Shown: positions 22,475-57,340, counted from the stretch's first letter. The stretch is DNA of 64,000 nucleotides from an uncultured Haloferula sp. (GCA_965652295.1 CBFGTS010000003.1:64001-128000), one strand, 5' to 3'. The notes: generated by a model from the sequence alone, not told the origin. A program made the numbers and translations.

Positions 22475-22479
22475 GAATG

Positions 22480-34111: not shown

Positions 34112-34127
34112 TCCCCCAAAATGGTGA
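34112..34127. promoter_or_regulatory. Operator-like palindrome 1
   Basis: TCCCC-CAAAAT-GGTGA. Confidence 0.6.
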
Positions 34128-34403
34128 GACCGGAAGGCCCGCGAACCGCCTGCCATGCCGTGCACGGAATCGAATTGCTTGCTCTCGCTGTCAATTCTGC
34201 GCCGACGCCACCATCGACGCATCGGACCGGGGAAACGGATCCTCCAAGTCGCCACCTTGGTCGCCTGACACCTTTCCTGCGGCCCCCTCTCCGCCGTTCC
34301 GAAGACGTTCCGTTAACAGCGTGCTGTCGGGGCGTTTCACCTCGACGGCACCGAGCACGCGACAGAGGAGAACAAGTCGATGCAGCCTCTGTGGAAAATG
34401 TCT

Positions 34404-34419
34404 TCCCCCGATTTAGGGG
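34404..34419. promoter_or_regulatory. Operator-like palindrome 2
   Basis: TCCCC-CGATTT-AGGGG. Confidence 0.6.
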
Positions 34420-34555
34420 GCGATCGGCGTTGTGTCCGGCCGCCCGGTAGAAAAGCGCCTCCGTCCATGTTGCCCTCGGAGTCTGCCACCACAACCATCG
34501 CCAAGCATGAGTGGGGCCTTGGCCATGCCTTGCGGGCCATCAAATCGCTCCCGGC

Positions 34556-34571
34556 TCCCCCGATTCAGGGA
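34556..34571. promoter_or_regulatory. Operator-like palindrome 3
   Basis: TCCCC-CGATTC-AGGGA. Confidence 0.7.
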
Positions 34572-34667
34572 GACGTCTCCGCTTCACCGGAAACCTCCTC
34601 CCTGCTATCCGAGGTCGTCCGCGGCAACGCGCGGTCGTCATCGGCACATACCATCATCCCCATCCTC

Positions 34668-37340
34668 ATGGCCCGTTTGTTTCATCCCAGCCCCCTTCTG
34701 CCTCCCCTCCGCGCCGCCACCTTGCTCGGCTGGCTCCTTTCCCTCGGCTCCCTCGCCGCCGCTCCGCAGACGCTCCGCCACTACCTCTCCGGTAGCGACG
34801 CGGAGAACACGGTGCCGTGGGAGTTCCACTGCTCCGGCGGACGCAACAGCGGGAAGTGGACGACGATTGGCGTGCCGTCGTGCTGGGAACTCCAGGGCTT
34901 CGGCTCCTTCCGCTACGGTTTCAGCGACCAATATCACGAGCCGATCCGCGGCGATTACCGCCACCGTTTCCACGTGCCCGCCAAATGGAACGAGCTGCGG
35001 GTTTTCATCGTGTTCGATGGCGTGATGACCGACGCCACGGTGAAGATCAACGGCACCCAGGCAGGCCCGGCCCACCAGGGCGCCTTCTATCGTTTCAAAT
35101 ACGACATCACGAAACTGCTCCGCTTCGGCGGAGAGAACCTGCTGGAGGTTTCCGTGCTCGACCAATCGACGGACGCCTCCGTCAACCAGGCGGAGCGCGA
35201 GGCGGACTACTGGATCTTCGGCGGGATCTTCCGCCCGGTCTGGCTTCAGGCCGAGCCCGCACAGTTCATTGATCGGGTGGCCATCGACGCGAAAGCCGAC
35301 GGGTCCTTCACGCTCGACTATTTTCTCGGCGGCAAGGGCGATGCCGACACGGTCCGCATGGCTCTGCTGGATGCGAAAGGAAAACCCGTAGGCGAAATCG
35401 CGAGCACCCCCGTAGCGACTGGCCGGATTTCCACGAAAGTTTCCCAACCGTCGCTGTGGAGCGCCGAAACGCCGGTGCTGCACACCGCCGTGGTCCGGCT
35501 CGAAAAGAGCGGGACGGTTCTCCACGAGATTCAGCAACGCTTCGGTTTCCGCACCGTCGAGGTGCGCGCTGACGATGGTGTTTATGTCAACGGCCGCCGC
35601 GTGATGATGCGCGGCGTCTGCCACCACGTCGCGTGGCCGACGCTCGGCCGGGCGTCGTCGCCACGCATCGCCGCGCTGGATCTGGATCTGATCCAGGAAA
35701 TGAACATGAACGCCGTGCGGATGAGCCACTATCCGCCCGACAAGGAGTTCCTGGAGATGTGCGACGAACGCGGGCTCTACGTCATCAACGAACTCGCTGG
35801 CTGGCAGGCGAAATACGACACCGGAGTCGGCGGCAAGCTGGTCCATGAAATGATCGCCCGCGACGTCAACCACCCGAGCATTCTCTTCTGGGCGAACGGC
35901 AACGAGGGCGGCTTCAATTTCGAACTCGACGATCTTTACTCCAAGCTCGATCCGCAACAGCGGCCGGTCCTCCACCCGTGGTCGCACTTCCGCGAGTTCG
36001 AGACGAAACATTACCCTGACTACAAGAAGCTGACCGAAATGCTCGCCAGCGACGCCATCGTCATGCCCACCGAGTTCCTCCACGGGCTCTACGATGGTGG
36101 CCACGGCGCAGGTTTGGAGGACTACTGGAACGCGATGCGCGGCACGAAGAATGCCGCCGGCGGCTTCCTCTGGGTCTTCGCCGACGAGGGCGTCCAGCGA
36201 GCTGACATGGACGGCGCGATCGATGTCGCCGGAAACAGCGCGCCGGACGGCATCGTCGGACCTTTCCGGGAAAAGGAAGGAAGCTTCCACACCATCCGGC
36301 AGCTCTGGTCGCCGGTGCAACTGCCCGATGACCTGCCCGCGGACTTCGACGGCACGCTGCCGGTCGGGAATCGCTACGACTTCACCCCGCTGTCCCACTG
36401 CAGCTTCCGCTGGCAGCTCCGCCGTTTTCCCGCACCGCCGACCGCTGGGGACGGCACCCCCGAGATCGCCGTCCTCGATGAACGCACACAACCCGGCCCG
36501 GATATCGCTCCGGGAGAAACCGGCGCGCTCCACCTGGCTCTGCCCACGGGGTGGCGGGAGAGGAACGCCGACGCGCTCGCCATCACCCCGGTCGATAAAA
36601 ACGGCCGCGAACTGTGGACCTGGATCTATCCGCTGACATCCGCGTGGACGCCTCCCGGGGAAGCCCTCAAGCCGCCGTCCACGGGTCATGAAGGACACTT
36701 GAAAAGCGGCGATGCTGAACTGCGGGTCGATCCCGAGACCGGAAGTCTGTCGGAAGTCGAAATCGCCGGCCGCGCCTTCTCCCTTCGCGGCGGCCCGATT
36801 CCAGGAGCAAAATGGCAGGCGCTCGATTCCGGTTGGTTCCAGCTCGACTACACCGCGGACCCCGCCACGCCCGGCGTCGTCGGCGTCGCCTTCGATTACC
36901 CCGAGGACAAGATGCTCTCCAAAACCTGGCTCTGCGACGGCCCCTGCCGGGTCTGGCGCAACCGACGGAAAGGCGTTTCACCCGGCGTCTGGCGCACCGA
37001 TGTCAACCGCTCCGAGCCATGGGCCTACCCGGAGTTCGACGGTTATTTCTCCGGCGTCCGCTGGCTGCGTCTGACCACCACCGAGGGTGCGGTCACGTTG
37101 GTCATTCCTGACGACGAAAAGTTCGTCCGCGTCGGCACGCCCCACTCTCCCGGGTGGAAACTGATGTCGAAGATGGCGACAACCTACCCACCCGGGAATC
37201 TCGCCGTGCTGGGAGACATTCCGGCCATCGGCACCAAGTTCCAGACTGCGGGCCAGACCGGGCCCCAAGCCACCACTCCCTTGGTCACCACTCCCTATCA
37301 AGGAACCCTCTATCTCCGGTTTGATTCGCTCGATCAATGA
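34668..37340 (+). CDS. GH2 beta-galactosidase (LacZ-like architecture)
   Basis: VPSCWELQGFG, DYWIFGGIFRPV, RGVCHH, NAVRMSHYPP, WANGNE, PTEFLHGLYDGG and GGFLW. Confidence 0.9.
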   Translation: MARLFHPSPLLPPLRAATLLGWLLSLGSLAAAPQTLRHYLSGSDAENTVPWEFHCSGGRNSGKWTTIGVPSCWELQGFGSFRYGFSDQYHEPIRGDYRHRFHVPAKWNELRVFIVFDGVMTDATVKINGTQAGPAHQGAFYRFKYDITKLLRFGGENLLEVSVLDQSTDASVNQAEREADYWIFGGIFRPVWLQAEPAQFIDRVAIDAKADGSFTLDYFLGGKGDADTVRMALLDAKGKPVGEIASTPVATGRISTKVSQPSLWSAETPVLHTAVVRLEKSGTVLHEIQQRFGFRTVEVRADDGVYVNGRRVMMRGVCHHVAWPTLGRASSPRIAALDLDLIQEMNMNAVRMSHYPPDKEFLEMCDERGLYVINELAGWQAKYDTGVGGKLVHEMIARDVNHPSILFWANGNEGGFNFELDDLYSKLDPQQRPVLHPWSHFREFETKHYPDYKKLTEMLASDAIVMPTEFLHGLYDGGHGAGLEDYWNAMRGTKNAAGGFLWVFADEGVQRADMDGAIDVAGNSAPDGIVGPFREKEGSFHTIRQLWSPVQLPDDLPADFDGTLPVGNRYDFTPLSHCSFRWQLRRFPAPPTAGDGTPEIAVLDERTQPGPDIAPGETGALHLALPTGWRERNADALAITPVDKNGRELWTWIYPLTSAWTPPGEALKPPSTGHEGHLKSGDAELRVDPETGSLSEVEIAGRAFSLRGGPIPGAKWQALDSGWFQLDYTADPATPGVVGVAFDYPEDKMLSKTWLCDGPCRVWRNRRKGVSPGVWRTDVNRSEPWAYPEFDGYFSGVRWLRLTTTEGAVTLVIPDDEKFVRVGTPHSPGWKLMSKMATTYPPGNLAVLGDIPAIGTKFQTAGQTGPQATTPLVTTPYQGTLYLRFDSLDQ

Positions 37341-37358
37341 TCGTTCCCCGGGAGAGCA

Positions 37359-37374
37359 TCCCTGCAATGGGGGG
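37359..37374. promoter_or_regulatory. Operator-like palindrome 4
   Basis: TCCCT-GCAATG-GGGGG (reverse complement CCCCC-CATTGC-AGGGA). Confidence 0.7.
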
Positions 37375-37468
37375 TGTCAAAACCACCACTTGGAGCGATG
37401 GACACGGGCTTCACGTCGCCTGCATTCTTCCTGATGCCCCGGCGACCGAAAGATAGATCCAGGAACTC

Positions 37469-38266
37469 ATGACGCATCGGCACCAGCTCCGCACCTTCAC
37501 CGTCTGCCTCACGGCGGTTGCCTCCCTGTTCGCCGCCTCCGTGGTCATGGCGGAGGGAACCTCCGAGGACTTCGCGAGGATCCACTTTTCAAAATACTTC
37601 CTCAACAACAACGTCTGGGGCCGGAGCGATTCACCTTCCGGCTGGAACGCCATCTGGAACAGCAACGATTCTTCGCCCGCGGGATGGGGCACCGCCTACG
37701 ACTGGCCGGTCGGCTCCAGTCCCCATTCCGTCAAAGCCTACCCGGGCATCGTCTCCGGCTGGCACTGGGGTACATGGTCCGAAAACTCCGGCCTGCCCGT
37801 TCGCATCTGGGACAACAACAAGGTCCACACCACTGCGGAGATCTCGATCTCCAATGCCGGCGTGCAGAACGCTGCCTACGACTGCTGGTTTCACACCATC
37901 TCCAACCCGACCTGGCAAGACAACCCGACGGACGAGCTGATGATCTGGACCGCCTCCTACGGTGACGCCGGACCTCTGGGGACTCATCAGGACACCGTCT
38001 GGATCGGCGGAGCAGAGTGGAAGCTCTACAAGGGAGCCATCGGTACGCCAGGCGAAGGAGGATGGAACGTCTTCTCGTTCGTCCGGACCTCCAACACCAC
38101 CTCCTGGACTCTCGACATCCGCGACTTCATCCACCACATCGTGTATGCGAAGGCCTGGATGACCAACTCCAAATATCTCACCAGCGTACAGTTCGGAACA
38201 GAGATCTTCAGCACCACTGGGTTTGGGCAGCTGAACGTCTCGAACTACCGGGTGGACATCAACTGA
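37469..38266 (+). CDS. GH12 endoglucanase/xyloglucanase
   Basis: LNNNVWG, VKAYP, NAAYDCWF, DELMIW (nucleophile region), WNVFSFV and YLTSVQFGTEIF (acid/base region). Signal peptide present. Confidence 0.92.
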   Translation: MTHRHQLRTFTVCLTAVASLFAASVVMAEGTSEDFARIHFSKYFLNNNVWGRSDSPSGWNAIWNSNDSSPAGWGTAYDWPVGSSPHSVKAYPGIVSGWHWGTWSENSGLPVRIWDNNKVHTTAEISISNAGVQNAAYDCWFHTISNPTWQDNPTDELMIWTASYGDAGPLGTHQDTVWIGGAEWKLYKGAIGTPGEGGWNVFSFVRTSNTTSWTLDIRDFIHHIVYAKAWMTNSKYLTSVQFGTEIFSTTGFGQLNVSNYRVDIN

Positions 38267-38286
38267 CCCGCCATCGGTGCAGAAAC

Positions 38287-38318
38287 AGGGAGCGGCGGTA
38301 TGGGTTCCGCCGCTCCCT
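38287..38318 (+). terminator. Strong stem-loop after GH12
   Basis: AGGGAGCGGCGG-TATGGGTT-CCGCCGCTCCCT, with no clear U tract. Confidence 0.5.
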
Positions 38319-38514
38319 CATGTACGTTTACGGGTCCGAATCGACCACGTGAGGGACGGATCGATGGAGCAACAAAAGGACGATCCGTCATATTTGTTTT
38401 ATACCACCAAGATAAAATAGATATCAAGAAGACCGGATTTGCCTCCTTTACGTCTTCGCGGCGAACCATCCAATCCAACCGACGTTGCACGGTGCGGCGC
38501 GAATCCGTTTGCCG

Positions 38515-38530
38515 TCACCCGATCAGGGGA
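38515..38530. promoter_or_regulatory. Operator-like palindrome 5
   Basis: TCACC-CGATCA-GGGGA. Confidence 0.7.
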
Positions 38531-38644
38531 ATCAAGAACCCCTCCTCAAGGCGATGGACCAGCGATTGAATTTCAACTTCGATGAGCAATCCTCATTCTG
38601 GCGGCTTCTCACCCACCATTTTGAGCGAAAACCAAAAACACCCA

Positions 38645-40201
38645 ATGAACCATCGACTCCTATCCATCATTTCATCGATCGCATCAGCATGGATGCTTTC
38701 GACCTCCGCCTCCGCTCAGCTTCCCAGTCCGTGTTACGGCTGGAACCTCGGGAACACCCTTGAGCCGCCGAACGGAGAAGGAACCTGGGGGCCCGCCGCC
38801 ACCCAGAATCTAATCAACTCCGTCGCCGACACCGGCTTCAACACGATCCGCATTCCGTGCGCCTGGGACAGCAACGCCAACCAGTCCACGCGGGTGATCA
38901 ACCCGACCTACATGGCGCGGGTCAAACAGGTTGTCGACTGGAGTCTCGCTAGGAACATGCATGTCGTCATCAACTGCCACTGGGACAACGGGTGGCTGGA
39001 GAACAACATCACCGACACGGTGGACTCCACCATCAACGCGAAGATGCAGTCCTACTGGACGCAGATTGCGAACACCTTCGCCAGCTACGACCAGCGCTTG
39101 CTCTTCGCCGGCGCGAATGAACCCGATTGCGACACCGCTGCCGAGTGGGCGACCTTGCGGAGCTACTACAACACCTTCATCAGCGCCGTCCGCGCCACCG
39201 GGGGCAACAACGCTTCCCGTTGGCTCGTGGTCCAAGGACCCAAGACCAACATCGATCTCTCCGACCAGCTGGTCTCGTCCCTGCCAAACGATCCCACCCC
39301 CGGCCGCCTGGCATTCGAGGTCCACTTCTACGATCCCTACCAGTGGACGATCATGCCCCAGGACGAAAGCTGGGGAAAAACATTCTACTTCTGGGGGCAG
39401 GGCTACCATCATGCCACCCGGACCGACCGCAACGCCACCTGGGGGGAGGAAAGCTACGTCGATTCCCAGTTCCAGAAGATGGTCGACAAGTTCTCCAACA
39501 ACGGCGTCCCCGTCATCATCGGCGAGTTCACCGCCATGAAGCGCACCGGCCTTTCGGACCTCACCGGGACCGACTTCGACCTTCACGTCGCCGCGCGCAC
39601 CTATTTCCACAAATACGTCGTCGATGCCGCCAACAGCAGGGGCATCAAGCCGATCTACTGGGACGTCGCCGGTCTCATGTTCAACTGGAGCACCGGAGCA
39701 GTCACGGACAGGGACAACAAGAACGCCTTGACCGGAGGAGCCGCCCTTCCGGCTCCCGGAAGCGGCCCGATCGCCAACGGCACCTATCAGCTCGTGGCCC
39801 GGCACAGCGGCAAAGCCCTCGAAACCGTCAACTTCGGAACCACCAATGGAACCCAGGTTCAGCAATGGGGCTACTGGGGTGGCTCCAACCAGAGATGGCA
39901 GGTCACGAAGAACAGCGACAACACCTACCGCATCATCGGCGTCCACAGCGGCAAGAGCCTCGACATCAGTGGCTGGAGCAGCTCGAACGGTGCCAAGGTC
40001 CAGCTGTGGGATTACTTCGGTGGCTCCAATCAGAAGTTCATCCTTACCGCCACGGGCAACGGATATTATCGCATTTCCCCCCAACACGCGCCGAACTCGT
40101 GCCTCGACGTCAGCTCCTACTCGTCGGCCGACGGTGCCATCGTCCACCTCTGGCAATGGTTCGGCTCAGCCAACCAGCAGTGGAGCTTCCAGGCCCCGTA
40201 A
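38645..40201 (+). CDS. GH5 endoglucanase (subfamily 4-like) with a C-terminal ricin-B/CBM13 domain
   Basis: GWNLGNTLE, IRIPCAW, INCHWD, ANEP, VHFYDP and IIGEF. QxW repeats NQRW, NQKF and NQQW. Confidence 0.92.
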   Translation: MNHRLLSIISSIASAWMLSTSASAQLPSPCYGWNLGNTLEPPNGEGTWGPAATQNLINSVADTGFNTIRIPCAWDSNANQSTRVINPTYMARVKQVVDWSLARNMHVVINCHWDNGWLENNITDTVDSTINAKMQSYWTQIANTFASYDQRLLFAGANEPDCDTAAEWATLRSYYNTFISAVRATGGNNASRWLVVQGPKTNIDLSDQLVSSLPNDPTPGRLAFEVHFYDPYQWTIMPQDESWGKTFYFWGQGYHHATRTDRNATWGEESYVDSQFQKMVDKFSNNGVPVIIGEFTAMKRTGLSDLTGTDFDLHVAARTYFHKYVVDAANSRGIKPIYWDVAGLMFNWSTGAVTDRDNKNALTGGAALPAPGSGPIANGTYQLVARHSGKALETVNFGTTNGTQVQQWGYWGGSNQRWQVTKNSDNTYRIIGVHSGKSLDISGWSSSNGAKVQLWDYFGGSNQKFILTATGNGYYRISPQHAPNSCLDVSSYSSADGAIVHLWQWFGSANQQWSFQAP

Positions 40202-40229
40202 CCCACCGTTGCGAAAAACGAAAACCCAA

Positions 40230-40252: not shown

Positions 40253-40269
40253 GCATCTTATCCGGCCCG

Positions 40270-41203: not shown

Positions 41204-44113
41204 CTAATTCAGACGCAAGAACAGCTTCTGCTCCGTGGCGGGGATCGTCCACGAGACGCGCTCGCTCAGCCCCGAGGCATCCAGCGGTTGGACTCGGGAA
41301 GTTCCTACCGCCGAGTGCCAGTCGTTCATGTCAATGGAGGTTTCCAATGTCATGTCGGTTGGAAAACCGCCACGCCGGTCGTAGGACAACGCCACCGCGC
41401 CATCCGCGAGCTGCCATGAACACCATGGATTCCCTTCGTTGACGAACGGGTCCCGCAACAACCACCACTCGACCCGGTTCGGGACACCGTCGTGGTCGGG
41501 GTCGGCACCGGGGCCGCCGATGCCATCGTCTGCGAGTTCCGACGCGGAGAACCGGGATTCCCTCCAGCTCTCCCAATCCTGCGAAACCCAATCGTCCGCG
41601 TCGGCCCCGCCGACAAGCGCGACATCTTCCACATGAAAGGTGGAAATCGGCGAGCCGCTGGCGTTCTGAATCATCAGGCCGTTGAAGTCCGGCACATTGG
41701 CCAAGCCCAGTTCCGACAGGTGGATCACCACGCGGGTCCACACCCCGGCAAATGGCGATGGAATCGGCGTGGACCCCACGGCCTCTCCGTCACGAACGCT
41801 GATGACTTGGAGCGGCTGCCCTCCGCTCTCCCCGCCGTGGACCCAGAATGCCACCGCGGAGTAGCCGGTGGTGTCCTGCAGCGACGACCGTCGCAGGTAA
41901 AGGGCTTCCCAGGCCCCCGCCGTGACAGCGATGGCGGAAGATCCGCGCCGCACCTGGAAGGTCGATGCCATGTCCACCGTCGCCCAACTCCAGCTTACCC
42001 AAGCCGGGTCCAAATTATCCTGATAGATCATCTTGTCCATGACCGGCGGGTCCGGGTCCGGGTCCGTATCACCTCCCCACGTCGTTCCCATGATGCTGTC
42101 AAACACGGGGATGAACGCGTCCGCAATCTTCGCCTGCCCCACGATGTTCGGGTGGTAGTGCGGGCCAAAGTCGTCCGGCACCACGAGATTGTAGGACACG
42201 CTGGCGAAATGCACCTTGCTGTCGCCCGACGCGCTTGCAGCTGCAGCGATGTAGCCGCTGGCAACGGAATCCATGCTGGACAGGTACGTGCAGATGATGT
42301 GGGCGTCGGGATAGTGGCTGCGCAAGGTCTCGATGAAACTGAGATAGCCACCCACATACTGCTCTTCGGAAGGATGGGGCGTGGTGGAAAAATCGTTGAT
42401 GCCCAGAGCGACGACGACCACGTCCGGCTGCCAGGCGAAGTCGTAGTCGTTATTCGCCACCGTCCCGCAGGTTCGCGGGAAAACTGGCGGAAAGGGGTCC
42501 ACGGACGTCTGATTGGAGTCTCCGTAGTTCCGAACCATCCCTTTCCCGGACCAGGCGGTAATCATGCATTCCGCGTTGTAATGGCTGGCCATGTGGGACG
42601 CGTAGGTGAGGCACGCGTTTTCGGTGGAGAAGTAGAACGTGTCAGAGAACTCCCCCTCGACGCCATAGCCGCAGGTGTAGGAATCCCCGATGAAGGCCAT
42701 TTTCCGGCTTGGAGCCGGATCCGGCGCGACCAAGGTCTTGCCACCGTCGAGAATGAAACCGCGAAACGTGTTCTTGCCCAGGCTCGCTTCCGCCCTCCGG
42801 CAAAGCGAAATACGGTGGATGCCGTCGCTCAACCCGGACGCCACCAGGAACGTTTCCAAGCCGCCGGTCGAACTGATGATCGGGCTTGTCTTGGCACCAT
42901 CAATGAACACGTCGAAGTATTTGCCCGGGCCCTCCATCTTCACCGAGCAGGAGGTTCCCTGAAACTTCGCGCGGATGGTGCTATGCGACCAATCGAAGCC
43001 CGGAGCCGAGGAAATCGTCCGATCGAACCTCCCGACATATTGGATGTTCGGATTGTCCGCACCGATGTCGCTCTGACCCTGGGGCGGATCCGTTTTTGCG
43101 AGGACGATGTCACCGCCGTTGGGCACGGCGTCGAACATGAGCTTGCCATCCACAACCCGGCATTCCACCAGCGCTCCGTCCTGAGTGACCGTGGCGGCGG
43201 CCCACCCACTCGGCATCGGGCGGCGCAACGTGAGGGGGTAGTCGAAAATCGTGGTGTCCAAGCCATGGGTGAGCCGAAGGGTGATGCTGGTCGCGCCACT
43301 CGAAACGACCGTCAGCACGGCGGCATCCCGCTCCTGAATGTAGCAGGACACGTTGCCAAAGGTTTCGACCCACCATTTGTCCGGCGTGGCCGTCACATGG
43401 TCCAGGTTTGATTGGAGAGCCGTGGAGGCAATCGGGCAGCAGGCCGGATCATCGTCGATGCCGTGTAGCAACCAGACCAGCCAGCTTCCCGAACTGGCCG
43501 CATTGTCGGCCTTGGCATTCATGTCGCCGTCGGGTCCCATCGCGCCGATACTCAGAAAATCCGTCGGCGTGCTGGGAACCAATGCTCCATTGCAACTCCG
43601 CGCGAACGCGTAAAACTCCGAGGTGACCGATTTGTCCGGTACCGTGCAGTACGGGTAGGCGACACTGACGCATTTTTCTCCCGTATGCGATTCGATGACT
43701 TCCTGGGACCCGAACAATTGCGCGGTCAGATCATCATTCGAAAGCGTCGTGAGGTCGGGATGCGTCAAGGTATGGCTGCCGATCTCGTGTCCCTTGGATG
43801 AGGCGTTTTCGATCGTTTCCCACTGGGAGGCGGAGAGGTCTCCGACGATGCAGAAGAACGTGGCAGGCAGGCCTTTCGCATCGAACATGGGTTGAGCCAC
43901 GGAGAACTGCTTCGGAGAGTTGTCATCGAACGTGTAGGAAACGGCGCTCGCGCGGAATCCGCGCCAGGTCGCAAGCTCATAGGGTACGGGAACCGTGGCG
44001 GCAAACGTGGCGTCGGTCGTGCCCCACGTGCTCAGAAAAAGGAACACTGCGACCGAGCGCAGCGCCTGCGTCCGGCGGTGCTTTTTCCCGCGGTTCGATG
44101 GAATGGAATGCAT
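41204..44113 (-). CDS. Modular esterase: polysaccharide deacetylase (CE4/NodB-like), CE2-like SGNH esterase, CBM-like domain and C-terminal beta domain
   Basis: SYTFDD, HEIGSHTLTH, AYPY and LLHG, then IQYVGRF, FIGDSYTCGYG, AWSGKG, LGINDF and HPN, then IYQDNL..WVSWSW. Ends ADPDHDGVPNRVE...LFLRLN. Confidence 0.85.
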   Translation of the reverse strand: MHSIPSNRGKKHRRTQALRSVAVFLFLSTWGTTDATFAATVPVPYELATWRGFRASAVSYTFDDNSPKQFSVAQPMFDAKGLPATFFCIVGDLSASQWETIENASSKGHEIGSHTLTHPDLTTLSNDDLTAQLFGSQEVIESHTGEKCVSVAYPYCTVPDKSVTSEFYAFARSCNGALVPSTPTDFLSIGAMGPDGDMNAKADNAASSGSWLVWLLHGIDDDPACCPIASTALQSNLDHVTATPDKWWVETFGNVSCYIQERDAAVLTVVSSGATSITLRLTHGLDTTIFDYPLTLRRPMPSGWAAATVTQDGALVECRVVDGKLMFDAVPNGGDIVLAKTDPPQGQSDIGADNPNIQYVGRFDRTISSAPGFDWSHSTIRAKFQGTSCSVKMEGPGKYFDVFIDGAKTSPIISSTGGLETFLVASGLSDGIHRISLCRRAEASLGKNTFRGFILDGGKTLVAPDPAPSRKMAFIGDSYTCGYGVEGEFSDTFYFSTENACLTYASHMASHYNAECMITAWSGKGMVRNYGDSNQTSVDPFPPVFPRTCGTVANNDYDFAWQPDVVVVALGINDFSTTPHPSEEQYVGGYLSFIETLRSHYPDAHIICTYLSSMDSVASGYIAAAASASGDSKVHFASVSYNLVVPDDFGPHYHPNIVGQAKIADAFIPVFDSIMGTTWGGDTDPDPDPPVMDKMIYQDNLDPAWVSWSWATVDMASTFQVRRGSSAIAVTAGAWEALYLRRSSLQDTTGYSAVAFWVHGGESGGQPLQVISVRDGEAVGSTPIPSPFAGVWTRVVIHLSELGLANVPDFNGLMIQNASGSPISTFHVEDVALVGGADADDWVSQDWESWRESRFSASELADDGIGGPGADPDHDGVPNRVEWWLLRDPFVNEGNPWCSWQLADGAVALSYDRRGGFPTDMTLETSIDMNDWHSAVGTSRVQPLDASGLSERVSWTIPATEQKLFLRLN

Positions 44114-44196
44114 GGTCGGATGGCGGTCTGAGCTTAGTCACCCAGACCAGCAAGAAACCTGCTGCCCATCAAGATTGGCCGATGGGGATTTCCCGC

Positions 44197-44212
44197 TCCC
44201 CCGACAGGGGGG
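44197..44212. promoter_or_regulatory. Operator-like palindrome 6
   Basis: TCCCC-CGACAG-GGGGG. Confidence 0.65.
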
Positions 44213-45268: not shown

Positions 45269-45301
45269 AGGATGGATCGTCGCTGCGGGTCGGGAGGACT
45301 T

Positions 45302-47711
<2,410 letters not shown>

Positions 47712-47758
47712 CTTTGAACGGTCGTAAGAAATCGGGACGGACAATGCGGAGGCTCAAG

Positions 47759-49690: not shown

Positions 49691-49715
49691 GATCATTGAC
49701 GGAAGGACTGGGTTT

Positions 49716-52169
49716 TCACGGGACGGATGGACGCGGCGTAACGGGTTCGGATTGGAGAAGCACCGATGCGGGTGCCAACCCATCGGCGTGTGCCGTGACA
49801 CGGATTTCACCCGCGGTGCCGGTGCTTTGCACAATGACTTGCGCCAGACCGTTGAACAGGCTGCGTTTCCAGGTGGCGGAGGGATCGACGAAGCAATCGG
49901 GCTCGTGCGAGCCAGGATCGCCATTGCCGACGCCGATGATTTTCCCTGGGCCGCTGATTTCAAAAGAGATCGGGTGGTTTGCGGTGGGAACCATCCGCCC
50001 CTCGGCATCGGCGACCTGCACGGTGATGACCGAGACGTCCGCGCCATCGGCGGCGAGCGCGGCACGGTGAGGCGCGAGTTGGATCGCGGCGGGCGCACCG
50101 GTGGTTTCGACCTTGGATGTTAGAACTTCCTCTCCGCCCTTGTAGCCTTTCGCGACCAGCGTGCCGGGAGTATATTTTACGGGCCATTCGAGATGTGAGT
50201 ATTTCGTCATCGCCTTGCGGCCCAGGCTTTCGCCATTGAGGAACAGCTCCACTTCATCGCAATTGCTGTACGCCCAGACGCTGATTGCCTGGCCTTCTTT
50301 CCCCTGCCAGTTCCAGTGCGGGAAAATGTGGAGCACCGGTTCGTCCGTCCACCAGGATTTCAGATAGAACATGCCGTCCTTCGGGAAGCCGCACAGGTCG
50401 AGGATGCCGAACTGCGAGCCGATGGCGGGCCATGAGAAAGGTGTCGGTTCGCCGCGATAATCGAAGCCGGTCCAGATGCACATGCCCGCCAGGAACGGCT
50501 TCTCCGCATAGTGCGACCACGCCTGTTCGAGGCTCGAACCCCAGTCGGAAGGGTCCCAGTCGTAGGCGTTGAGGTGGCACTCCTCGCGATCGTCGAAATA
50601 GATACCGCGGGTCTGGTTGAACGCGCACTCTTCGGTACCGATCATCGGTTGATCCGGGTGACGCTCATGCCATTGATCGGTGGTGGCGCCGCCTCTTGCC
50701 AGGTTGCCGAGGTAATTCACGCCAGCAACCTCGACGACCTCGGAGAATCCCCCACCCCAACCGCCGCTGATGGCGACGGTGACGGGCCGCGTGGAATCCA
50801 GCTGTTTCGTCCAGCGCTGCATGGTCGAGGCGATCCGCGCACCAGTGTCGCTGCCTTCGACTTTCCATTCCTCGTTTCCAATCGACCAGAGAATCACGCT
50901 CGGATGGTTGCGGTCGCGAAGGATCATGCGGCGCAGATGATCATGATGGAACTCCGCGGTGCCCATGAGACGGTTTTCATCGATCACCAGCATGCCGAGC
51001 CGGTCGCAGACATCGAGCAGCTCAGGCGTCGGCGGGTTGTGCGAAGCGCGGTAGATGTTGCAGCCGAACTCCTTGAGTTTCGTGATGCGGTATTCCTGCA
51101 AGGCATCCGGAATGGCCGCGCCCACCCCCGCATGATCCTGGTGGTTGTTCGTGCCCTTGAGCTTCACATGCTTGCCATTGAGGAAGAAGCCCTCGTTCGC
51201 ATCGAAACGGATCGAACGGATGCCGAAGGTCGTTTCATAGTGGTCCACCACCGCGTTGTTAGAGACGATGGTTGTGACGAGTTTGTACCGGTGCGGCGTT
51301 TCAAGGGACCAGAGCCTCGGCCGGGGAATAGGCAGCACCTGACTGAATTCGGCCCGCTCTCCGGCAGGCAGAGCGAGTTCCTTCGCATGCGTCGAAGCGA
51401 CGGTCTTCCCGTCGGCATCCAGAACGATCTGCCCGATTTCAAAGACAGCATCCTCCGCGCCTTCGTTCACTACGGAAACGCGAGCCGTCACGTCGGCCGC
51501 GTCCTCTTTCAATTCGGAAGTGACATAGGTGCCATGTCGCTCGACGTGCAGCGGGTTCGTCTTCACCAGCCAGACGTGCCGATAAATTCCAGCGCCCTCG
51601 TAGAACCAGCCTTCCTCCAACGATGCGTCCACGCGAACGACGATGACGTTTTCCCCGCCGTAATTCAGGAACTCGGTGAGATTGCGGGCAAAGCTGCTGT
51701 AGCCGCTTTCCTCGCGACCGAGGTAATGGCCGTTGATCCAGACGATCGAGTCGCGGAACACGCCGTCGAAGTCGACGCTGATCCGCCTGCCGAGGTCGGA
51801 AGCAGGAATAGTGAACGTCTTACGATACCAGCCGACGCTGTTCTCAGGGAAGTTCCGGCCGATCGCCTTGTATCCATGGCTCTTGCTGCCGCGCTCGCTG
51901 AACGGCAGCTCCACCGCCCAGTCATGCGGCAGATTGAGCGCCCGCCAGCCGCTGTCGTCGAATTCGAAAGCGGACGCACCCGTGCCGAAACCCGTTTTCG
52001 CCAGATAGGAAAAATCGCCCGTGGCGTGATCGAAATCCTTTGAAACCTCCGTGGCGTGACCGAACGCGAAGCGCCAACCGGAGTCCATCAGCAGCAGCTC
52101 ACGCGGCGACTCCGCGGAGGCGAACACAGACAGCAAGATTGCGATGGAGACAAACCTGATGATTCTCAT
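49716..52169 (-). CDS. GH2 beta-galactosidase
   Basis: LPHDWAVELPF, EGWFYEGAGIYR, GTNNHQDHAGVG, RASHNPP, WSIGNEE, GTEE and WTGFDYRGEPTP. Confidence 0.92.
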   Translation of the reverse strand: MRIIRFVSIAILLSVFASAESPRELLLMDSGWRFAFGHATEVSKDFDHATGDFSYLAKTGFGTGASAFEFDDSGWRALNLPHDWAVELPFSERGSKSHGYKAIGRNFPENSVGWYRKTFTIPASDLGRRISVDFDGVFRDSIVWINGHYLGREESGYSSFARNLTEFLNYGGENVIVVRVDASLEEGWFYEGAGIYRHVWLVKTNPLHVERHGTYVTSELKEDAADVTARVSVVNEGAEDAVFEIGQIVLDADGKTVASTHAKELALPAGERAEFSQVLPIPRPRLWSLETPHRYKLVTTIVSNNAVVDHYETTFGIRSIRFDANEGFFLNGKHVKLKGTNNHQDHAGVGAAIPDALQEYRITKLKEFGCNIYRASHNPPTPELLDVCDRLGMLVIDENRLMGTAEFHHDHLRRMILRDRNHPSVILWSIGNEEWKVEGSDTGARIASTMQRWTKQLDSTRPVTVAISGGWGGGFSEVVEVAGVNYLGNLARGGATTDQWHERHPDQPMIGTEECAFNQTRGIYFDDREECHLNAYDWDPSDWGSSLEQAWSHYAEKPFLAGMCIWTGFDYRGEPTPFSWPAIGSQFGILDLCGFPKDGMFYLKSWWTDEPVLHIFPHWNWQGKEGQAISVWAYSNCDEVELFLNGESLGRKAMTKYSHLEWPVKYTPGTLVAKGYKGGEEVLTSKVETTGAPAAIQLAPHRAALAADGADVSVITVQVADAEGRMVPTANHPISFEISGPGKIIGVGNGDPGSHEPDCFVDPSATWKRSLFNGLAQVIVQSTGTAGEIRVTAHADGLAPASVLLQSEPVTPRPSVP

Positions 52170-52227
52170 CTTCTTTGACCTGATTGGATGCTGGTACTCG
52201 TGGAGAAATGGCCGTCCCCATCGCCAC

Positions 52228-52270
52228 AAAAAAGCCGGAAGGCCGCTGGAGAGCAGCTTCCCGCCCCTAC
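52228..52270 (-). terminator. GTAG-led hairpin with a U6 tract (terminator-like or REP-like)
   Basis: Minus strand GTAGGGGCGGGAAGCTGCT-CTCC-AGCGGCCTTCCGGC followed by TTTTTT. Confidence 0.5.
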
Positions 52271-52362
52271 GACCCACTGGCGCGAGGGAACGTTCCTCCA
52301 TGGGCTTTCAGCACGACCTCTTCCGTGACTTCCGAGCATAGGGGACCACCCCTCGCCCACCA

Positions 52363-52378
52363 TCCCCCATTGCAGGGA
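52363..52378. promoter_or_regulatory. Operator-like palindrome 7
   Basis: TCCCC-CATTGC-AGGGA, 15/16 identical to site 4. Confidence 0.7.
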
Positions 52379-52475
52379 TTGTTGATTCCCCCCGCATCGC
52401 CGAAGGCCCGGATCCCACGCCGTCTCAAACGAGAAACGTCGAATCCGGAGCATTGGAAATCACCGAAAACGCCGC

Positions 52476-54026
52476 CTACCTGCTTCGTGAAGTGAGCTTG
52501 TAGAGCATCACGCCGTGGGGGCGCACCGTCGCTGACAGCGAACCCTCGATCTCCTCTAGATTCTTCTGCCGCCACAGATCGCGAACCTGCTGTCTTCCGC
52601 CCAAGCCGTAGCCAGCCAGTCCATCCAGCGTGACGGTCGCCTCCTTCTCCCCCATGTTGATAAAGCAGAGCGCGGTGGTTCCGTCTTCCAACGGCTTTCG
52701 ATAAACACGAACCTTGCCTAGATCGGCGATCCTGACGGCCGGTTTCCCCAGCGCATCCTGATCGATCGCAAGCACCTCGTCATTCGTCAGCAGCCCGAGA
52801 GTGAAATCGTCGAGTTTGGTCAGATCGCATCCGATCAACAATGGAGCCGACATCATGCACCACATGCTGACGTGAGCGTATTGCTCATCCGGCGTCAGAT
52901 GCGTGGGATGCATCGCCGATCCCACGCTCACCCAGCCAACCACCATCATGTCCGGATCGTTCCAATGCCCGGGACTCGCCACATGCGCCCATTTCTCGTT
53001 GGCATCGATGATCTGGGAGACGGAAACATGATAGGTCTGATCGCTACGCGGCTCCCAGTGATCCCAGATGTCTCCGGTGGTCCTCCAGACGTTGGACCAG
53101 CGGGCCAGCTCGACACCCGATTCGAAGGGAGCGGTATTCGAGAGGCTGAAAACGATGTCGCGCCCGGTGGAACGAAGCGCTTCAAACATTTCCCGCGTGC
53201 TGTCCACGTCATTGGGATTCCAGTCGTACTTGAGATAGTCGAACCCCCACTCGGCGAACTGCCTGGCATCCGCCTGCGCGAAGCTGATCGGGCCAATCTC
53301 CTGACCTGCTTTTCCCCCCAGCCGTTCAGCGGACCACTCGCCCTCCGGGTTGTCGGACGAGCCTCCGGGGTAGTTCGCGTAGGAGGTCATCCAAGGAGTG
53401 GAATAGACGCCCGTCTTCAGCCCCATGTCATGGAGCGCTTTGCACAAACCCTTCATGTCCGGAAACTTGTCATTTGCCAGCAACGCCTTGTCCGCACCCT
53501 CCCGCTTGCCTTGCCAAGCGTCGTCGATGTTCACATAGGACCAGCCGTGATTGATCAGGCCGGACGAAACCAGGATGCGCGCCGATTCCAACACTTTCTC
53601 TTGATCGACATTCACAGCCCAACTGTTCCAGCTGTTCCAACCCATCGGCGGCGTCAGAGCGATCTCCTCGCCCACCACGATCCGAAAGTCTCGAGTGGCC
53701 GAGTCCACGACATTCGCAGCCTTCAGGATCACCTTGTATTCGCCCGCCTTCTCAACCTTGCCAGTGATTCGGCCGGTTTGAGGGTCGATGCTCAGCCCCT
53801 CGGGAAGGCCATCCGCGCCGAACTCCATGGGACGCTTGCCGGTCGCCGGCACCGTGTAAAGGCAAGGCGATCCCGGCCGGACTCCGAACACCGATGGTCC
53901 ATTGATGCGGGGCGCCGCGGATGGAGGCGGCGTGAGGATGTGGCTCGACAAATCAGGGGCTTCTTCGGCAAGCAACGGCAGCATCGTAAAGGCCAGCGCG
54001 ACCGCGGCACCACGGGTTTTCTTCAT
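52476..54026 (-). CDS. GH27 alpha-galactosidase / beta-L-arabinopyranosidase-like enzyme with an N-terminal Ig-like domain
   Basis: TPPMGWNSWN, YVNIDDAW, WGFDYLKYDW, WRTTGDI, WNDPDM and APLLIGCD. Confidence 0.92.
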   Translation of the reverse strand: MKKTRGAAVALAFTMLPLLAEEAPDLSSHILTPPPSAAPRINGPSVFGVRPGSPCLYTVPATGKRPMEFGADGLPEGLSIDPQTGRITGKVEKAGEYKVILKAANVVDSATRDFRIVVGEEIALTPPMGWNSWNSWAVNVDQEKVLESARILVSSGLINHGWSYVNIDDAWQGKREGADKALLANDKFPDMKGLCKALHDMGLKTGVYSTPWMTSYANYPGGSSDNPEGEWSAERLGGKAGQEIGPISFAQADARQFAEWGFDYLKYDWNPNDVDSTREMFEALRSTGRDIVFSLSNTAPFESGVELARWSNVWRTTGDIWDHWEPRSDQTYHVSVSQIIDANEKWAHVASPGHWNDPDMMVVGWVSVGSAMHPTHLTPDEQYAHVSMWCMMSAPLLIGCDLTKLDDFTLGLLTNDEVLAIDQDALGKPAVRIADLGKVRVYRKPLEDGTTALCFINMGEKEATVTLDGLAGYGLGGRQQVRDLWRQKNLEEIEGSLSATVRPHGVMLYKLTSRSR

Positions 54027-54108
54027 AGGATATGTGGTTTGTTGATCGTCAGTTTCTGATTGGTTCCGGCGCCCACCTGTCGACGCGGAAAATGGTCGGC
54101 GGATTCCG

Positions 54109-55245
54109 TCATTGCCCCTCGGGAAGCTCCATGTTCCGGAGCATGATGACCGAAAGATCCTCGCTTGGCCCATAGGGTTCCCTGCGCGACACCGCGCCGC
54201 CGGTATCCCACAACACGGGGACCATTTTCCGCTTCAGGGCGGCGCTGAACACCGAGACCGTCCACCGAAGCCGCGATTCTTTCTCCCGAGGCGCGCAAAC
54301 CGCGAACTCCCCGATGAAGACCGGAACCTTGTGACGCTCGGACGTCTCACTCAACTTGTCGAAAAGCTCCGTCAGCTCGTTCACGTCCTTCTCGTTGCCC
54401 CACGTCAGCTGCATTTTCCCCCAGCTCTCGTCCTTCTCCATGCCTGCGAACGGCCATGGCTGGTAGTAGTGGATCGAGAGAAACAGCCGGTCCGGAACCG
54501 AATCCTTCGGCAGCCGGTATTCCCTCAGACTGGTCATCTCGATGTCCGTCTTGTAGCCGGGGATGATCAGCAGGCGCCGCGGGTTGTTGCCGCCGGTCCG
54601 GCGCACGGTATCGATGAAAATCTGGTTCGCCCGCGTGAGCGCGGCGTATGCCTTCCTGGTCGATCCCTCGTTCTCGAAATTCGTCTCCTCGTTGATCGCC
54701 TCGAAAATGAGTTTCTCGTTCTTGTCGGCGTAGTGCCGGGCGATCTGGCCCCAATACGAGCGGAACTTCTTTTCCGCCTCCTTACTAAAGGTGTGGTAGG
54801 TGTCCGGGTAGCGCTCCTTGTTGCCGGAGTCGATCCAGCCTTCATCCCAATGGATGTTGATGACGCAGAACATCCCGGCGTCCAGAATCCATCCCACCAC
54901 CTCGTCGATCCGCTGGAATTTTTCCCGCGTGATCCGCCCGTTCTCGGCGTAGGTGTCCCAGGCGACGGGGAGCCGGATGGTCTTGAACCCGAGTTCGGCG
55001 AGGCTGTCGATGTAGTCCTTCGTGATGATCGGACTCCCCCAACCTGTCTCCCAGCGGGTGGTGTTCTCGAAGGTATTGCCGATATTGATACCGGGCGTCA
55101 TTTGCCCGACCGCCGTCCAGGCATCCAGCGGCTTCATTTTCTCCGGCCGGGCCCCTGCCCCGGCAGCGGCGGAGAGGGCGAAGGCAACGAACGCCAGCAG
55201 GAAGCCAACGAGACGACAAACGGTGAAATGGAAACGGCGGGTCAC
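54109..55245 (-). CDS. GH5 endoglucanase (subfamily 4-like), single domain
   Basis: GINIGNTFE, ETGWG, IRLPVAW, INIHWD, FEAINE, IHYYQP, FIGEF and LWDTG. Confidence 0.9.
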   Translation of the reverse strand: MTRRFHFTVCRLVGFLLAFVAFALSAAAGAGARPEKMKPLDAWTAVGQMTPGINIGNTFENTTRWETGWGSPIITKDYIDSLAELGFKTIRLPVAWDTYAENGRITREKFQRIDEVVGWILDAGMFCVINIHWDEGWIDSGNKERYPDTYHTFSKEAEKKFRSYWGQIARHYADKNEKLIFEAINEETNFENEGSTRKAYAALTRANQIFIDTVRRTGGNNPRRLLIIPGYKTDIEMTSLREYRLPKDSVPDRLFLSIHYYQPWPFAGMEKDESWGKMQLTWGNEKDVNELTELFDKLSETSERHKVPVFIGEFAVCAPREKESRLRWTVSVFSAALKRKMVPVLWDTGGAVSRREPYGPSEDLSVIMLRNMELPEGQ

Positions 55246-55311
55246 AACGGGAGCCCGAACGCTAACAACCCGCTTCCCGCTCCGCCACCGGTCAGGTTCG
55301 GGACATTGATC

Positions 55312-55327
55312 TCCCCCAAATCAGGGA
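55312..55327. promoter_or_regulatory. Operator-like palindrome 8
   Basis: TCCCC-CAAATC-AGGGA. Confidence 0.7.
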
Positions 55328-55389
55328 AGCACCGGCGGCAGGAGCGGGGCGGGCCATGAAGAAGGAGTTGGGCTGTCGCCAGCAGCCCC

Positions 55390-57027
55390 TCAGGATTCGA
55401 TCTCAAGCGCGAAGGCGATTTCCCCGTCGAACTTGGCGGGTAACGAAACGTGCAAGCCGTCCGCATCGCGGTCGAACTTCAACGCCCGGCCACCGACCAG
55501 GCGGACGCTGCGGATGTCCCCGGACCACTTGTCGGAGCCCTCCTTCAGCGACCTGACGGTGACTTTGCCGTCTTGGGGAATCTCCAGCACGATGGCATAG
55601 AGCGTCTTTCCGTCCTTCGATCGGGTGAAGCGGATGTCTTCGGCGGTGAACGGGTGGTCGGAGACGTCCTTCTGACCGTCGAACTGACCTTTCTCGGCCA
55701 CCAGAGTCGAAGGTCCCTCGCCGTAGATCTGCCACGGGCGGGTGGCGTAGATCGCCTCGCCATTGACCTTCAGCCAAGCACCGATCTCCTTGACGATTTC
55801 GATCTCCAACTCGTCGGGCTGCCCGTCGCGACGCAGCGGCACGCTCAGCATGAGGTTGCCGTTCTTGCTCACGATGTCGGCCAGCATCCGCACCACCGAC
55901 GCAGCGGACTTATAACCCTTCCGATCGTAAACACCCCGGTCGTAGTGCCACGACCCGAGGCAGGTGTCGGTTTGCCAGGCCTGGGGCAGGATGTCGTGCG
56001 CCTTGCCGCGCTCGATGTCGTAAACCATGGCCCGGCGCTGCATCTCATTGAGCTTTTTGTTGTTCATCACCGCCTCGGTCCGGCCGTTCTTGTCGAGGCG
56101 GGTGTTGTACAAGTGCGCGGCGAGTTTCAGGCCCACCTCGTCCGTCGCGCCATGGAAGGGCAGCACAGAATCGTCGAAATAGATCTGGTCGGGATGGTAA
56201 TCGTCCCAGAGCTGCCGGGTGCGCTTGAAAAATTTCTCCATGTAGGCGGCATCCGGAACGGTGGCGCCCCCCACGGGATCCCAATCCCACCAGCCCCAGC
56301 CGCTCTGGTCCCCGCGCCCGTGGTTCTGGGCGTAGAGATCCTGCGGATCGAGTCCCTCCCACCACTGGCCTTTTCCATCGGCTTTGGTGAGCTTTCCGTC
56401 GTACGGCACCCCGGCGAACGGACCTTCCTTGTCCGCACCCTGGGACGGCTCATACCACGTCCAGGCATGGGACGCGTGGACGCTGACGCCGAAACGCAAG
56501 CCGTGCTTGCGCGCCGCCTTGGACCAGCCACCGATCAAGTCCTTCTTCGGACCGACGGCGACGGAGTTCCACGGCTGATACTTCGAATCGAAGAGATCAA
56601 GGTTGTCGTGGTGATTGGCCATCGCCATGAAAATCCTGGCACCGTTGTCCTTGTAGAACTTCACCAATTTGTCGGGATCGAAGCGCTCGGCCTTCCAGTT
56701 CCGGATCACGTCCTTGAACCCGAACTTGGAGGGATGGCCGTATTCATCGAGGTGCAGCTTGTACTGCCACTCCCCCTCCTTGTACATGTTGCGGGCATAC
56801 CAGTCGCCATGCTCCGGTTCGCATTGCGGCCCCCAGTGCGCCCAGATCCCGAACTTCGCGTCGCGATACCACTCCGGCGTTTCGTAGGCCGCCAGCGACT
56901 GCCAATCCGGTTTGAACGGGCCGTCTTTGATGTCCGGCAGCTTCAGGGAATCCGTTTGCGCCAGCGCGGTCGCCAGCGAACAGCCGAGCGTCACCAAACA
57001 CCGTTGGGTTGAGTTCAGAGTCATCAT
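55390..57027 (-). CDS. GH29 alpha-L-fucosidase
   Basis: PEWYRDAKFGIWAHWG, NHHDN, IYFD, DIERG, WQTDT, DIVSKNGNL and NGEAIYATRPW. Confidence 0.92.
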   Translation of the reverse strand: MMTLNSTQRCLVTLGCSLATALAQTDSLKLPDIKDGPFKPDWQSLAAYETPEWYRDAKFGIWAHWGPQCEPEHGDWYARNMYKEGEWQYKLHLDEYGHPSKFGFKDVIRNWKAERFDPDKLVKFYKDNGARIFMAMANHHDNLDLFDSKYQPWNSVAVGPKKDLIGGWSKAARKHGLRFGVSVHASHAWTWYEPSQGADKEGPFAGVPYDGKLTKADGKGQWWEGLDPQDLYAQNHGRGDQSGWGWWDWDPVGGATVPDAAYMEKFFKRTRQLWDDYHPDQIYFDDSVLPFHGATDEVGLKLAAHLYNTRLDKNGRTEAVMNNKKLNEMQRRAMVYDIERGKAHDILPQAWQTDTCLGSWHYDRGVYDRKGYKSAASVVRMLADIVSKNGNLMLSVPLRRDGQPDELEIEIVKEIGAWLKVNGEAIYATRPWQIYGEGPSTLVAEKGQFDGQKDVSDHPFTAEDIRFTRSKDGKTLYAIVLEIPQDGKVTVRSLKEGSDKWSGDIRSVRLVGGRALKFDRDADGLHVSLPAKFDGEIAFALEIES

Positions 57028-57167
57028 CTTTCCAGTTAATTTTCGAGTGTGGATCCCTCCGCGGGATCGCGGAGAGTTACACGAGTGAACGCCTTCCTCG
57101 TTCAGGCAAACGCGGTCATCCTGAAAAGGAAAATGGCCGAACCCGAACGCCCTCCAATCCATTGATC

Positions 57168-57194
57168 ATCTGCGCATATCCGCGTTCATCTGCG
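57168..57194. repeat. 10-bp-period ATC(T/C)GCG triple repeat, probable arm of a degenerate inverted-repeat element
   Basis: ATCTGCG-cat-ATCCGCG-ttc-ATCTGCG. A weak opposite arm lies near 57059-57092. Confidence 0.55.
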
Positions 57195-57324
57195 ATTCTA
57201 TTTTCCTGTTTCAAATCCTGGATTTTGCAATCAGGCGGACACCGACGCGAGCCACGCTCGCATCCGTTCCCACCACGCCAGTTCTCGGCCGCCGACGCAA
57301 TCCGGCGGATGAGGGATTCTGCCC

Positions 57325-57340
57325 TCCCCCGCACAGGGGA
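57325..57340. promoter_or_regulatory. Operator-like palindrome 9
   Basis: TCCCC-CGCACA-GGGGA, 13 bp past the response regulator stop codon. Confidence 0.7.

Follow-up and report, generated by a model that had tools for sequence, protein, structure and literature searches.

A stretch of 64,000 nucleotides from an uncultured Haloferula sp., hereafter the window (G000:C3:64001-128000, G000 being the genome that holds it), contains repeated copies of a 16-bp palindrome before genes for carbohydrate-active enzymes (CAZymes) and surface proteins, next to a NarL-type kinase-regulator pair. We find that the palindrome is a 7-2-7 inverted repeat, TCCCCTG-AT-CGGGGGA, and that it forms the upstream part of a module of ~70 bp, consisting of the core, an A-tract, a half-site 24 bp on, a weakened -35 and a weak -10. 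This module recurs with fixed spacing before unrelated genes in genomes that have the pair. Judging from these sequence comparisons, the palindrome is likely part of a conserved promoter module bound by the NarL-type regulator, through which genes with a predicted part in xyloglucan breakdown would be turned on. It can be seen as the probable switch of the pair because the signal fronts fibre-digestion genes and travels with the pair across related species. The palindrome described in an original prediction, made from the window alone, is real but longer than described.

The promoter module

In an alignment of 33 sites the consensus of the core (positions 1-16) reads tCCCC.gaTcGGGGGa, followed by an A-tract at 21-24, the half-site CCMCTC (consensus cCcCtc) at 25-30, T(G/C)G(A/C)C (consensus TgGAc) at 41-45 and a weak T-rich hexamer at 64-69, with a weak T at 64 and 69. 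Some of these sites were picked using the downstream pattern, while for 10 only the core was used; T41 and G43 do not vary among the sites, those 10 included, and the core-only sites in orthologous loci carry the same downstream module. The element precedes genes for PATR, Ig-domain and PEP-CTERM proteins, for carbohydrate esterases (CE20, CE1) and for glycoside hydrolases (GH2, GH3, GH5, GH12, GH29, GH44, GH74). As these genes are unrelated, it is not the inherited leader of one gene.

Two models were used, a core model trained on window sites and a 46-column model trained on 14 sites from other genomes only. The top seven sites of G000 by the 46-column model (16.0-37.9 bits; next 12.5) include five of the window. 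These are the modules before GH5-CBM13 (38515..38560, plus strand, 37.9 bits, the top site of the genome), facing GH29 (57295..57340, minus strand, core at 57325, 28.6 bits), before GH12 (37359..37404, plus strand, 26.5 bits), facing the PEP-CTERM/PATR genes (34082..34127, minus strand, 18.8 bits; core 34112-34127, second half-site and -35-like bases) and before GH5, which is followed by GH27 (55259..55327, minus strand, core at 55312, 16.0 bits; -10 TAGCGT at a 17-bp spacer). The module facing GH29 lies 13 bp past the regulator stop, a position it also has in orthologous loci. The remaining two of the seven precede GH74 (C5:233031) and a decayed GH12 copy (C13:108759). At the latter place (L041:8760-8960), a near-identical copy of the GH12 promoter is followed by the decayed GH12 5' end, beside a GH115 gene.

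Most window sites, read toward their target, show the A-tract, the second CCMC half-site 24 bp past the core start and TGGA-like bases. The module before CE4-CE2 (44167..44212, minus strand, core at 44197) is an exact pattern match with a weaker downstream part (8.0 bits). Before the GH2-CE20-GH43-CE1-GH62 run, the core 52363-52378 has a second site 33 bp downstream (52330..52378, minus strand). The core at 34404..34419 is followed leftwards by a second half-site and then by a -35-like hexamer one base early, its target being uncertain, and the core at 34556..34571, 96 bp ahead of GH2, lacks the usual downstream module. Just beyond the window end, at window position 64479 (G000:C3:128479), there is a tenth core, before the GH3-GH31-kinase-regulator run. 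In two other genomes (L020:13817 in G007, L055:13676 in G285) a single core is flanked by downstream modules both ways, for divergent directions.

Eight of the nine palindromes originally listed match the proposed pattern exactly, while the one at 37359 needs one mismatch. All nine are intergenic, as was claimed, provided that GH2 begins at the ATG at 34668; an extension of this gene from 34380 scores as non-coding. Six lie ~66-124 bp ahead of a start codon, and those at 52363 and 57325 are, as stated, more distant (193 and 297 bp). A hairpin or repeat had been placed between each distant site and its gene; inverted repeats do occur between 57325 and GH29, while none was found between 52363 and GH2. 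Among the weaker copies that had been suggested, those at 57301 and 52330 belong to the sites at 57325 and 52363 as their second sites, at distances of 24 and 33 bp, the one at 15225 is a lone core (13.0 bits), and that at 30561 is no match (-7.2 bits). The lone core (15225-15240), without downstream module, stands before a gene for a 921-aa TSP3-repeat protein and downstream of a large GH115 gene.

A loose 16-bp pattern, fitted post hoc, gives 12 strand-matches at 9 places in the window vs 4.07 +/- 2.33 in shuffles, and 0 of 100 shuffles reach 12; one match, at 7068, is inside a gene. Genome-wide there is no enrichment, with 40 intergenic matches at spacer 6 vs 16-46 at spacers 2-11. Seven of the 40 are in the window and an eighth just past its end, so the enrichment is local. 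As a cross-genome marker the loose pattern is uninformative, as it matches in 60 of 61 genomes.

Co-occurrence with the kinase-regulator pair

The comparison set comprises 300 family genomes, 34 of the same genus and 266 of other genera. An orthologue of the kinase is found in 17 of the 300; among same-genus genomes it is clear in 10 of 34 (54-60% identity; next tier at most 36%, with one fragment at 68%). The idea that orthologous loci would show the site as a phylogenetic footprint holds: the top match of the window-trained core model is intergenic in 8 of 10 loci (14.9-20.6 bits), and in seven of these it lies within 340 bp of the regulator's end. The two same-genus loci without a site are those of G010, where the contig ends 241 bp past the regulator, and of G006, a genome that has the module at two unlinked places. 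In most orthologous loci a site directly follows the regulator stop. G007 and G010 also contain second copies of the regulator, and there too the module directly follows the stop codon. Kinase and regulator are kept together in all orthologous loci seen.

The exact composite pattern occurs in 13 of the 300 genomes, namely in 11 with a kinase orthologue and in G003 and G033, where it comes from a repeat resembling repetitive extragenic palindromic (REP) elements. For the genomes of other genera, unused in the design, it is found in 2 of 7 with the kinase vs 0 of 259 without (Fisher p 6e-4, for kin that are not independent). Locus scans detect the module in 6 of these 7, and with such scans the element is present in 16 of the 17 kinase-bearing genomes. 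If one mismatch is allowed, there is one match each in G001 and G020, which have no orthologue, and in seven genomes of other families. Orthologues of the regulator outside the family were not found in the 281 order genomes searched.

Several observations count against a switch of this kind. In G122 the pair is present (45% kinase identity) but the element is not, G001 has a strong core although it has no kinase orthologue, and ~20 lone cores occur elsewhere in G000, some before unrelated genes. At the locus, the downstream part scores negative for 4 of 10 cores (34404, 34556, 52363 and 64479), the cores themselves being good, and the second site keeps the left half only (mean of the right half -10 bits).

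The regulator and the sensor kinase

The regulator gene (57353..57970, minus strand) encodes a NarL/FixJ-family response regulator with a receiver and a LuxR-type (GerE) helix-turn-helix (HTH) domain in Pfam. Its closest solved structures are ChrA, VraR, NarL and DevR, and the recognition-helix/HTH region is nearly invariant among orthologous regulators. The gene adjoins that of a HisKA_3 sensor kinase (57967..59973, minus strand), with a 4 bp overlap. The original assignment of the palindrome to this pair (57353-59973) is upheld by the 7-2-7 geometry, the cross-genome co-occurrence and the failure of the LacI and extracytoplasmic function (ECF) sigma genes to track the motif. From this evidence, it is very probable that the neighbouring regulator binds the core.

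The 408-residue N-terminal region of the kinase has no Pfam match, neither to Reg_prop/Y_Y_Y nor to any other family. Its predicted structure (predicted local distance difference test, pLDDT, 88.5) gives OB-fold matches over residues 98-204, 204-296 and 298-407 (Z up to 13.2; root-mean-square deviation 2.7 over 99 residues), the first repeat being compared only sparsely. The region of ~410 aa is accordingly predicted to consist of tandem OB folds, which makes it a candidate for a new type of ligand-sensing module. An extracytoplasmic location is suggested by an N-terminus resembling a signal sequence and by a hydrophobic stretch with basic residues after it; a 19-residue hydrophobicity scan at a cut-off of 1.9 flagged no segment.

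In a same-strand run with the kinase are GH31 (60033..62435, minus strand), closest to YicI-type enzymes, and GH3 (62482..64000, minus strand), whose start is at 64290, beyond the window. The core at 64479 is upstream of this run, so the kinase and regulator genes may be autoregulated. Beyond the window, from G000:C3:128889 onward, the locus is bordered by a tRNA-Leu and then by a stretch with few genes that, on inspection by eye, looks like an integrase remnant. Genes of ~295 aa, candidate homologues of one another, lie divergent from the kinase at the same place in seven same-genus loci (L003:6915-7811, L007:16981-17865 and equivalents); the window has none there.

Target genes and the predicted signal

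Genes of G000 were called with a hexamer model of its own (3435 genes), and a Pfam scan of the 43 open reading frames (ORFs) of the window agrees with the gene identities named at the outset. The PATR and PEP-CTERM genes, together with the Atlas neighbours of the sequence, make a host in Verrucomicrobiota likely. No Rfam family was found within window positions 30000-64000. On the minus strand, the first targets are a PATR surface protein (30633..33263) with an N-terminal beta-sandwich like that of carbohydrate-binding modules (CBM), the commonest target in relatives, and a PEP-CTERM protein (33319..33987; 20.4 bits, just below the 20.7 cut-off). On the plus strand follow GH2 (34668..37340), GH12 (37469..38266) and GH5-CBM13 (38645..40201). 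The others are again on the minus strand: the CE4-CE2 esterase (41204..44113), a run of GH2, SASA-domain esterase, GH43, esterase and GH62 (44237..52169), GH5 and GH27 (52476..55245) and the GH29 alpha-fucosidase (55390..57027). Between them, at 40366-41166, a 266-aa protein without Pfam match is encoded; homologues of it are found after GH5-CBM13 in G007 and, in G000 and G279, after GH74.

The palindrome is not a general CAZyme operator. A core of at least 11 bits stands ahead of 1 of 52 GH2, GH43, GH5, GH29, GH3 and PATR genes sampled off the locus vs 4 of 8 at the locus; at 8.1 bits or more the counts are 5 of 52 and 8 of 8. This is one regulon with few unlinked members.

The recurrent targets of the module, i.e., GH74, GH5, GH44, GH3, CE20, CE1 and surface proteins with a CBM-like fold, point to xyloglucan. 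For GH5-CBM13 the best solved relatives are 5OYC, 4W8A (an exo-xyloglucanase), 3ZMR and 2JEP (a xyloglucanase), for GH12 2JEM and for the SASA-domain esterase 7KMM; we take 5OYC, 3ZMR, 2JEM and 7KMM to act on xyloglucan. GH31 is nearest to 5F7C and YicI, the latter presumably acting on xylosides, and the unlinked GH74 of G000 is nearest to xyloglucanases. GH74 is present in 8 of 17 kinase-bearing genomes vs 4 of 283 others. With two copies set aside for too little upstream DNA, the module is found ahead of 7 of 11 GH74 copies with 900 bp upstream in kinase-bearing genomes (G000 included; one copy is in the training set) and ahead of 0 of 4 in genomes without the kinase. These target genes support the earlier guess of xyloglucan.

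The same regulator and sites could, however, serve another inducer. This might be a less specific fragment of beta-glucan or hemicellulose, or contact with a surface, and some lineages would then have brought xyloglucanases into the regulon. Several observations can be read this way. A search for GH74 was negative in 9 of the 17 genomes with the kinase, and the module is missing ahead of 4 of the 11 GH74 copies. In six genomes (G005, G013, G016, G017, G026 and G029) the sole site examined precedes a non-catalytic PATR or Ig-domain protein. The xyloglucan-type enzymes of the locus are co-located but mixed with GH62, GH43, GH27 and CE4-CE2, which fit xylan or mannan, all subfamily leanings being taken from the nearest solved structures. 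Finally, the fold of the sensor points to no ligand. The N-terminal domains of the PATR and Ig-domain targets resemble each other weakly (E 3e-4) and are predicted to form a CBM-like beta-sandwich (pLDDT 77, with CBM domains as the best matches at TM 0.5-0.68), a fold that does not show binding; the homologue search with the PATR domain gave one protein and no solved sequence relative. Against another inducer are the uneven distribution of GH74, the unlinked sites in G000, G007, G279 and G285 that precede GH74, and the relatives of GH5, GH12 and the esterase named above. We consider a different inducer a serious but less probable option, the balance tipping slightly toward xyloglucan or its oligosaccharides as the signal.

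Promoter register and proposed mechanism

Housekeeping promoters of G000 have a TTG-like -35 and 17-bp spacing, as modelled from 41 of its 47 tRNA upstream regions. Applied to the 33 sites, this model places the best -35 at position 41 (mean -0.2; next offset -7.0; random -11.2 +/- 6.2), and the same register is obtained with 12 sites from other genera and G006 (0.7; next -7.6). With the -35 at position 41, the core would be centred at -67.5 and the second site at -43.5 or -44.5. Escherichia coli NarL, according to the available text of two papers, binds sites defined as 7-2-7 inverted repeats (PMC7419079); its activating positions are -43.5 at yeaR, -44.5 together with -77.5 at ogt and -67.5 at an engineered promoter (PMC10853779, PMC7419079).

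The promoter itself is poor. The -10 is weak (mean 0.0 vs -2.0 +/- 2.75 for random positions), the module scores far below tRNA promoters (9.7), and the inferred leader of GH5 would be only 6 nt, all of which counts against the model proposed here. The second -35 base, position 42, is T in 2 of 33 sites vs 39 of 41 tRNA promoters. An off-consensus -35 is what would be expected of activator-dependent promoters. It could also mean that the regulator binds the core while TSGAC...GT serves an alternative sigma factor of the ECF type or acts as one more half-site of the regulator. The -10 usually lacks the -11 A, positions 38-44 resemble the right half-site and G000 has many ECF genes. However, T41 and G43 do not vary, the spacing to the T-rich hexamer equals the 17 bp of the genome, and the ECF of the window does not track the motif, homologues being present in 9 of 10 motif-bearing vs 12 of 24 other same-genus genomes. 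Since the -10 is weak and the second site left-half only, an alternative sigma keeps some probability, but we regard it as unlikely. A sigma54 promoter was rejected: the TTGC expected eight bases past TGG would fall in columns 52-55, which are unconserved, though the word pair occurs elsewhere in G000.

Some other factor might bind the palindrome, either the LacI protein encoded within the window (22867-23943) or a NarL paralogue whose own box is similar. Besides the regulator of the locus, G000 encodes 13 full-length ones of NarL type, one of them beside such a TACCCC/GGGGTA box (G000:C4:106339), and the lone cores elsewhere may be cross-talk. The motif does not track the LacI gene, though: a search for LacI homologues came up empty in 4 of the 10 motif-bearing same-genus genomes but succeeded in 8 of the 24 others. 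At nine paralogous kinase loci no full module scores more than 11 bits, and the site follows the stop of this very regulator in most orthologous loci. Binding by another factor is improbable. The LacI gene belongs to a cluster with an ECF sigma and a Ser/Thr kinase (19627-23943), and a homologous trio is also near the kinase in G007.

Binding by the neighbouring regulator would quite likely lead to activation. The opposite, that it represses from these sites until the signal releases it, draws on the second site abutting the -35, where it could block polymerase; with the -35 consistently off consensus and both sites upstream of it, at positions where NarL activates, repression is more doubtful still. 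That the sites are copies of a REP-like repeat without regulatory role is scarcely credible, even though G000 has 11 GTAG-footed hairpins with a CCCCC-TTSA-GGGGG core and such repeats account for the matches in G003 and G033, for the window sites have no GTAG foot beside a perfect hairpin, all 14 training sites have a purine at operator position 7 and a pyrimidine at position 10, where the repeat shows the opposite, and the sites face the starts of genes and are followed by the conserved module. The hairpins of G000 lie on C1, C6, C7, C9, C10, C12 and C20, three times as inverted pairs ~70-80 bp apart, and a similar repeat is common in G003.

We suggest that the system could work as follows. 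The extracytoplasmic OB-fold array of the kinase would sense a glycan or glycan fragment and the kinase would phosphorylate the regulator. One regulator dimer on the strong core near -67.5 would help a second to occupy the weak site near -44, which adjoins a -35 one base off consensus, and RNA polymerase would be recruited as at E. coli yeaR and ogt. The core before GH3-GH31-kinase-regulator would add positive feedback.

A possible wider pattern

Two other NarL regulators of G000, both paired with Reg_prop/Y_Y_Y HisKA_3 kinases, have locally repeated palindromes of their own. At L067 (G000:C4:97000-116999), a TACCCC/GGGGTA-type palindrome occurs at C4:106296, 106322, 110751, 111835 and 111872 (5 local copies vs 0.25 expected), beside PL11, CBM96 and PEP-CTERM genes. 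At L068 (G000:C1:508000-527999), three near-identical 20-bp palindromes (C1:516106, 517179 and 520977) precede genes for a PATR protein, a small secreted protein and GH78, and GH2 also adjoins. These are the two clear cases among 13 paralogous regulators tested, with many candidate words tried per regulator; the other 11 gave nothing clear. G006 (L036:11227 on C21) has a paralogous pair (41% regulator identity) after which a related, perfect palindrome stands ahead of a PATR gene.

Because these two pairs have their own palindromes before PEP-CTERM/PATR and rhamnogalacturonan-type genes, it can be speculated, at somewhat less than even chance, that free-living Verrucomicrobia run polysaccharide genes by split NarL-type systems, each with its own 7-2-7 box, in place of AraC hybrids, and that the present member reads xyloglucan through a tandem-OB-fold sensor. 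If true, the boxes could serve as a code for assigning glycans and orphan surface proteins across Verrucomicrobia. The defined operator is a ready handle for bench tests. It connects the locus with genes elsewhere in the genome, GH74 among them, and makes a part in glycan use likely for otherwise uncharacterized PEP-CTERM, PATR and Ig-domain proteins.

Comparison with known systems

Verrucomicrobia degrade complex plant and algal glycans, and to our knowledge they lack the SusC/D landmarks by which Bacteroidota loci are read. Openly listed literature, with supplements, subscription papers and curated regulon databases outside the scope, contained no description of this operator or system that we could find, and nothing on the control of CAZyme or polysaccharide genes in Verrucomicrobia. 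The accessible part of a 2024 review (PMC10766802) makes no mention of Verrucomicrobia, LuxR or NarL.

The role of the pair had been likened to that of the hybrid two-component systems (HTCS) of Bacteroidota. Like those of Bacteroidota and Cellvibrio, as the accessible part of the review describes them, it combines a membrane sensor kinase and an activator beside CAZyme genes for one glycan class (PMC10766802). The regulators of the hybrid systems are, in the same text, of AraC/XylS type, while here kinase and regulator are separate genes and the regulator is LuxR-type. We find two genes with a GerE HTH rather than a single hybrid polypeptide with an AraC HTH, and predicted OB folds rather than a Reg_prop/Y_Y_Y beta-propeller in the sensor; the Pfam scan of the 43 window ORFs gave neither SusC/SusD nor a TonB receptor. 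As the defining parts of an HTCS or a polysaccharide utilization locus are lacking, the likeness stands as a functional one only. XygS/XygR of Ruminiclostridium cellulolyticum (Kampik 2020), likened here by description only, is also a two-component system that positively regulates xyloglucan use; its host is Gram-positive and its regulator AraC-type in the summary that PMC10766802 gives.

The closer parallels are within the NarL family, and in its parts, as predicted from sequence, the system is a NarL/FixJ regulon. E. coli UhpA and Mycobacterium tuberculosis DosR are NarL-family activators with a strong upstream and a weak promoter-proximal site; they differ from the present system in signals and sequences. 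With E. coli NarL at yeaR and ogt, as far as the available text of the two papers goes, it shares a NarL/FixJ regulator, a HisKA_3 kinase, the 7-2-7 repeat and tandem sites of which one abuts the -35, and the centres at -67.5 and -43.5/-44.5, which rest on the inferred -35, equal activating positions of NarL (PMC7419079, PMC10853779). It differs in the heptamer, here TCCCCYR, in the natural tandem spacing of 24 bp instead of 33 bp, in a second site that is a half-site, in a sensor predicted as an OB-fold array and in having glycan genes as targets.

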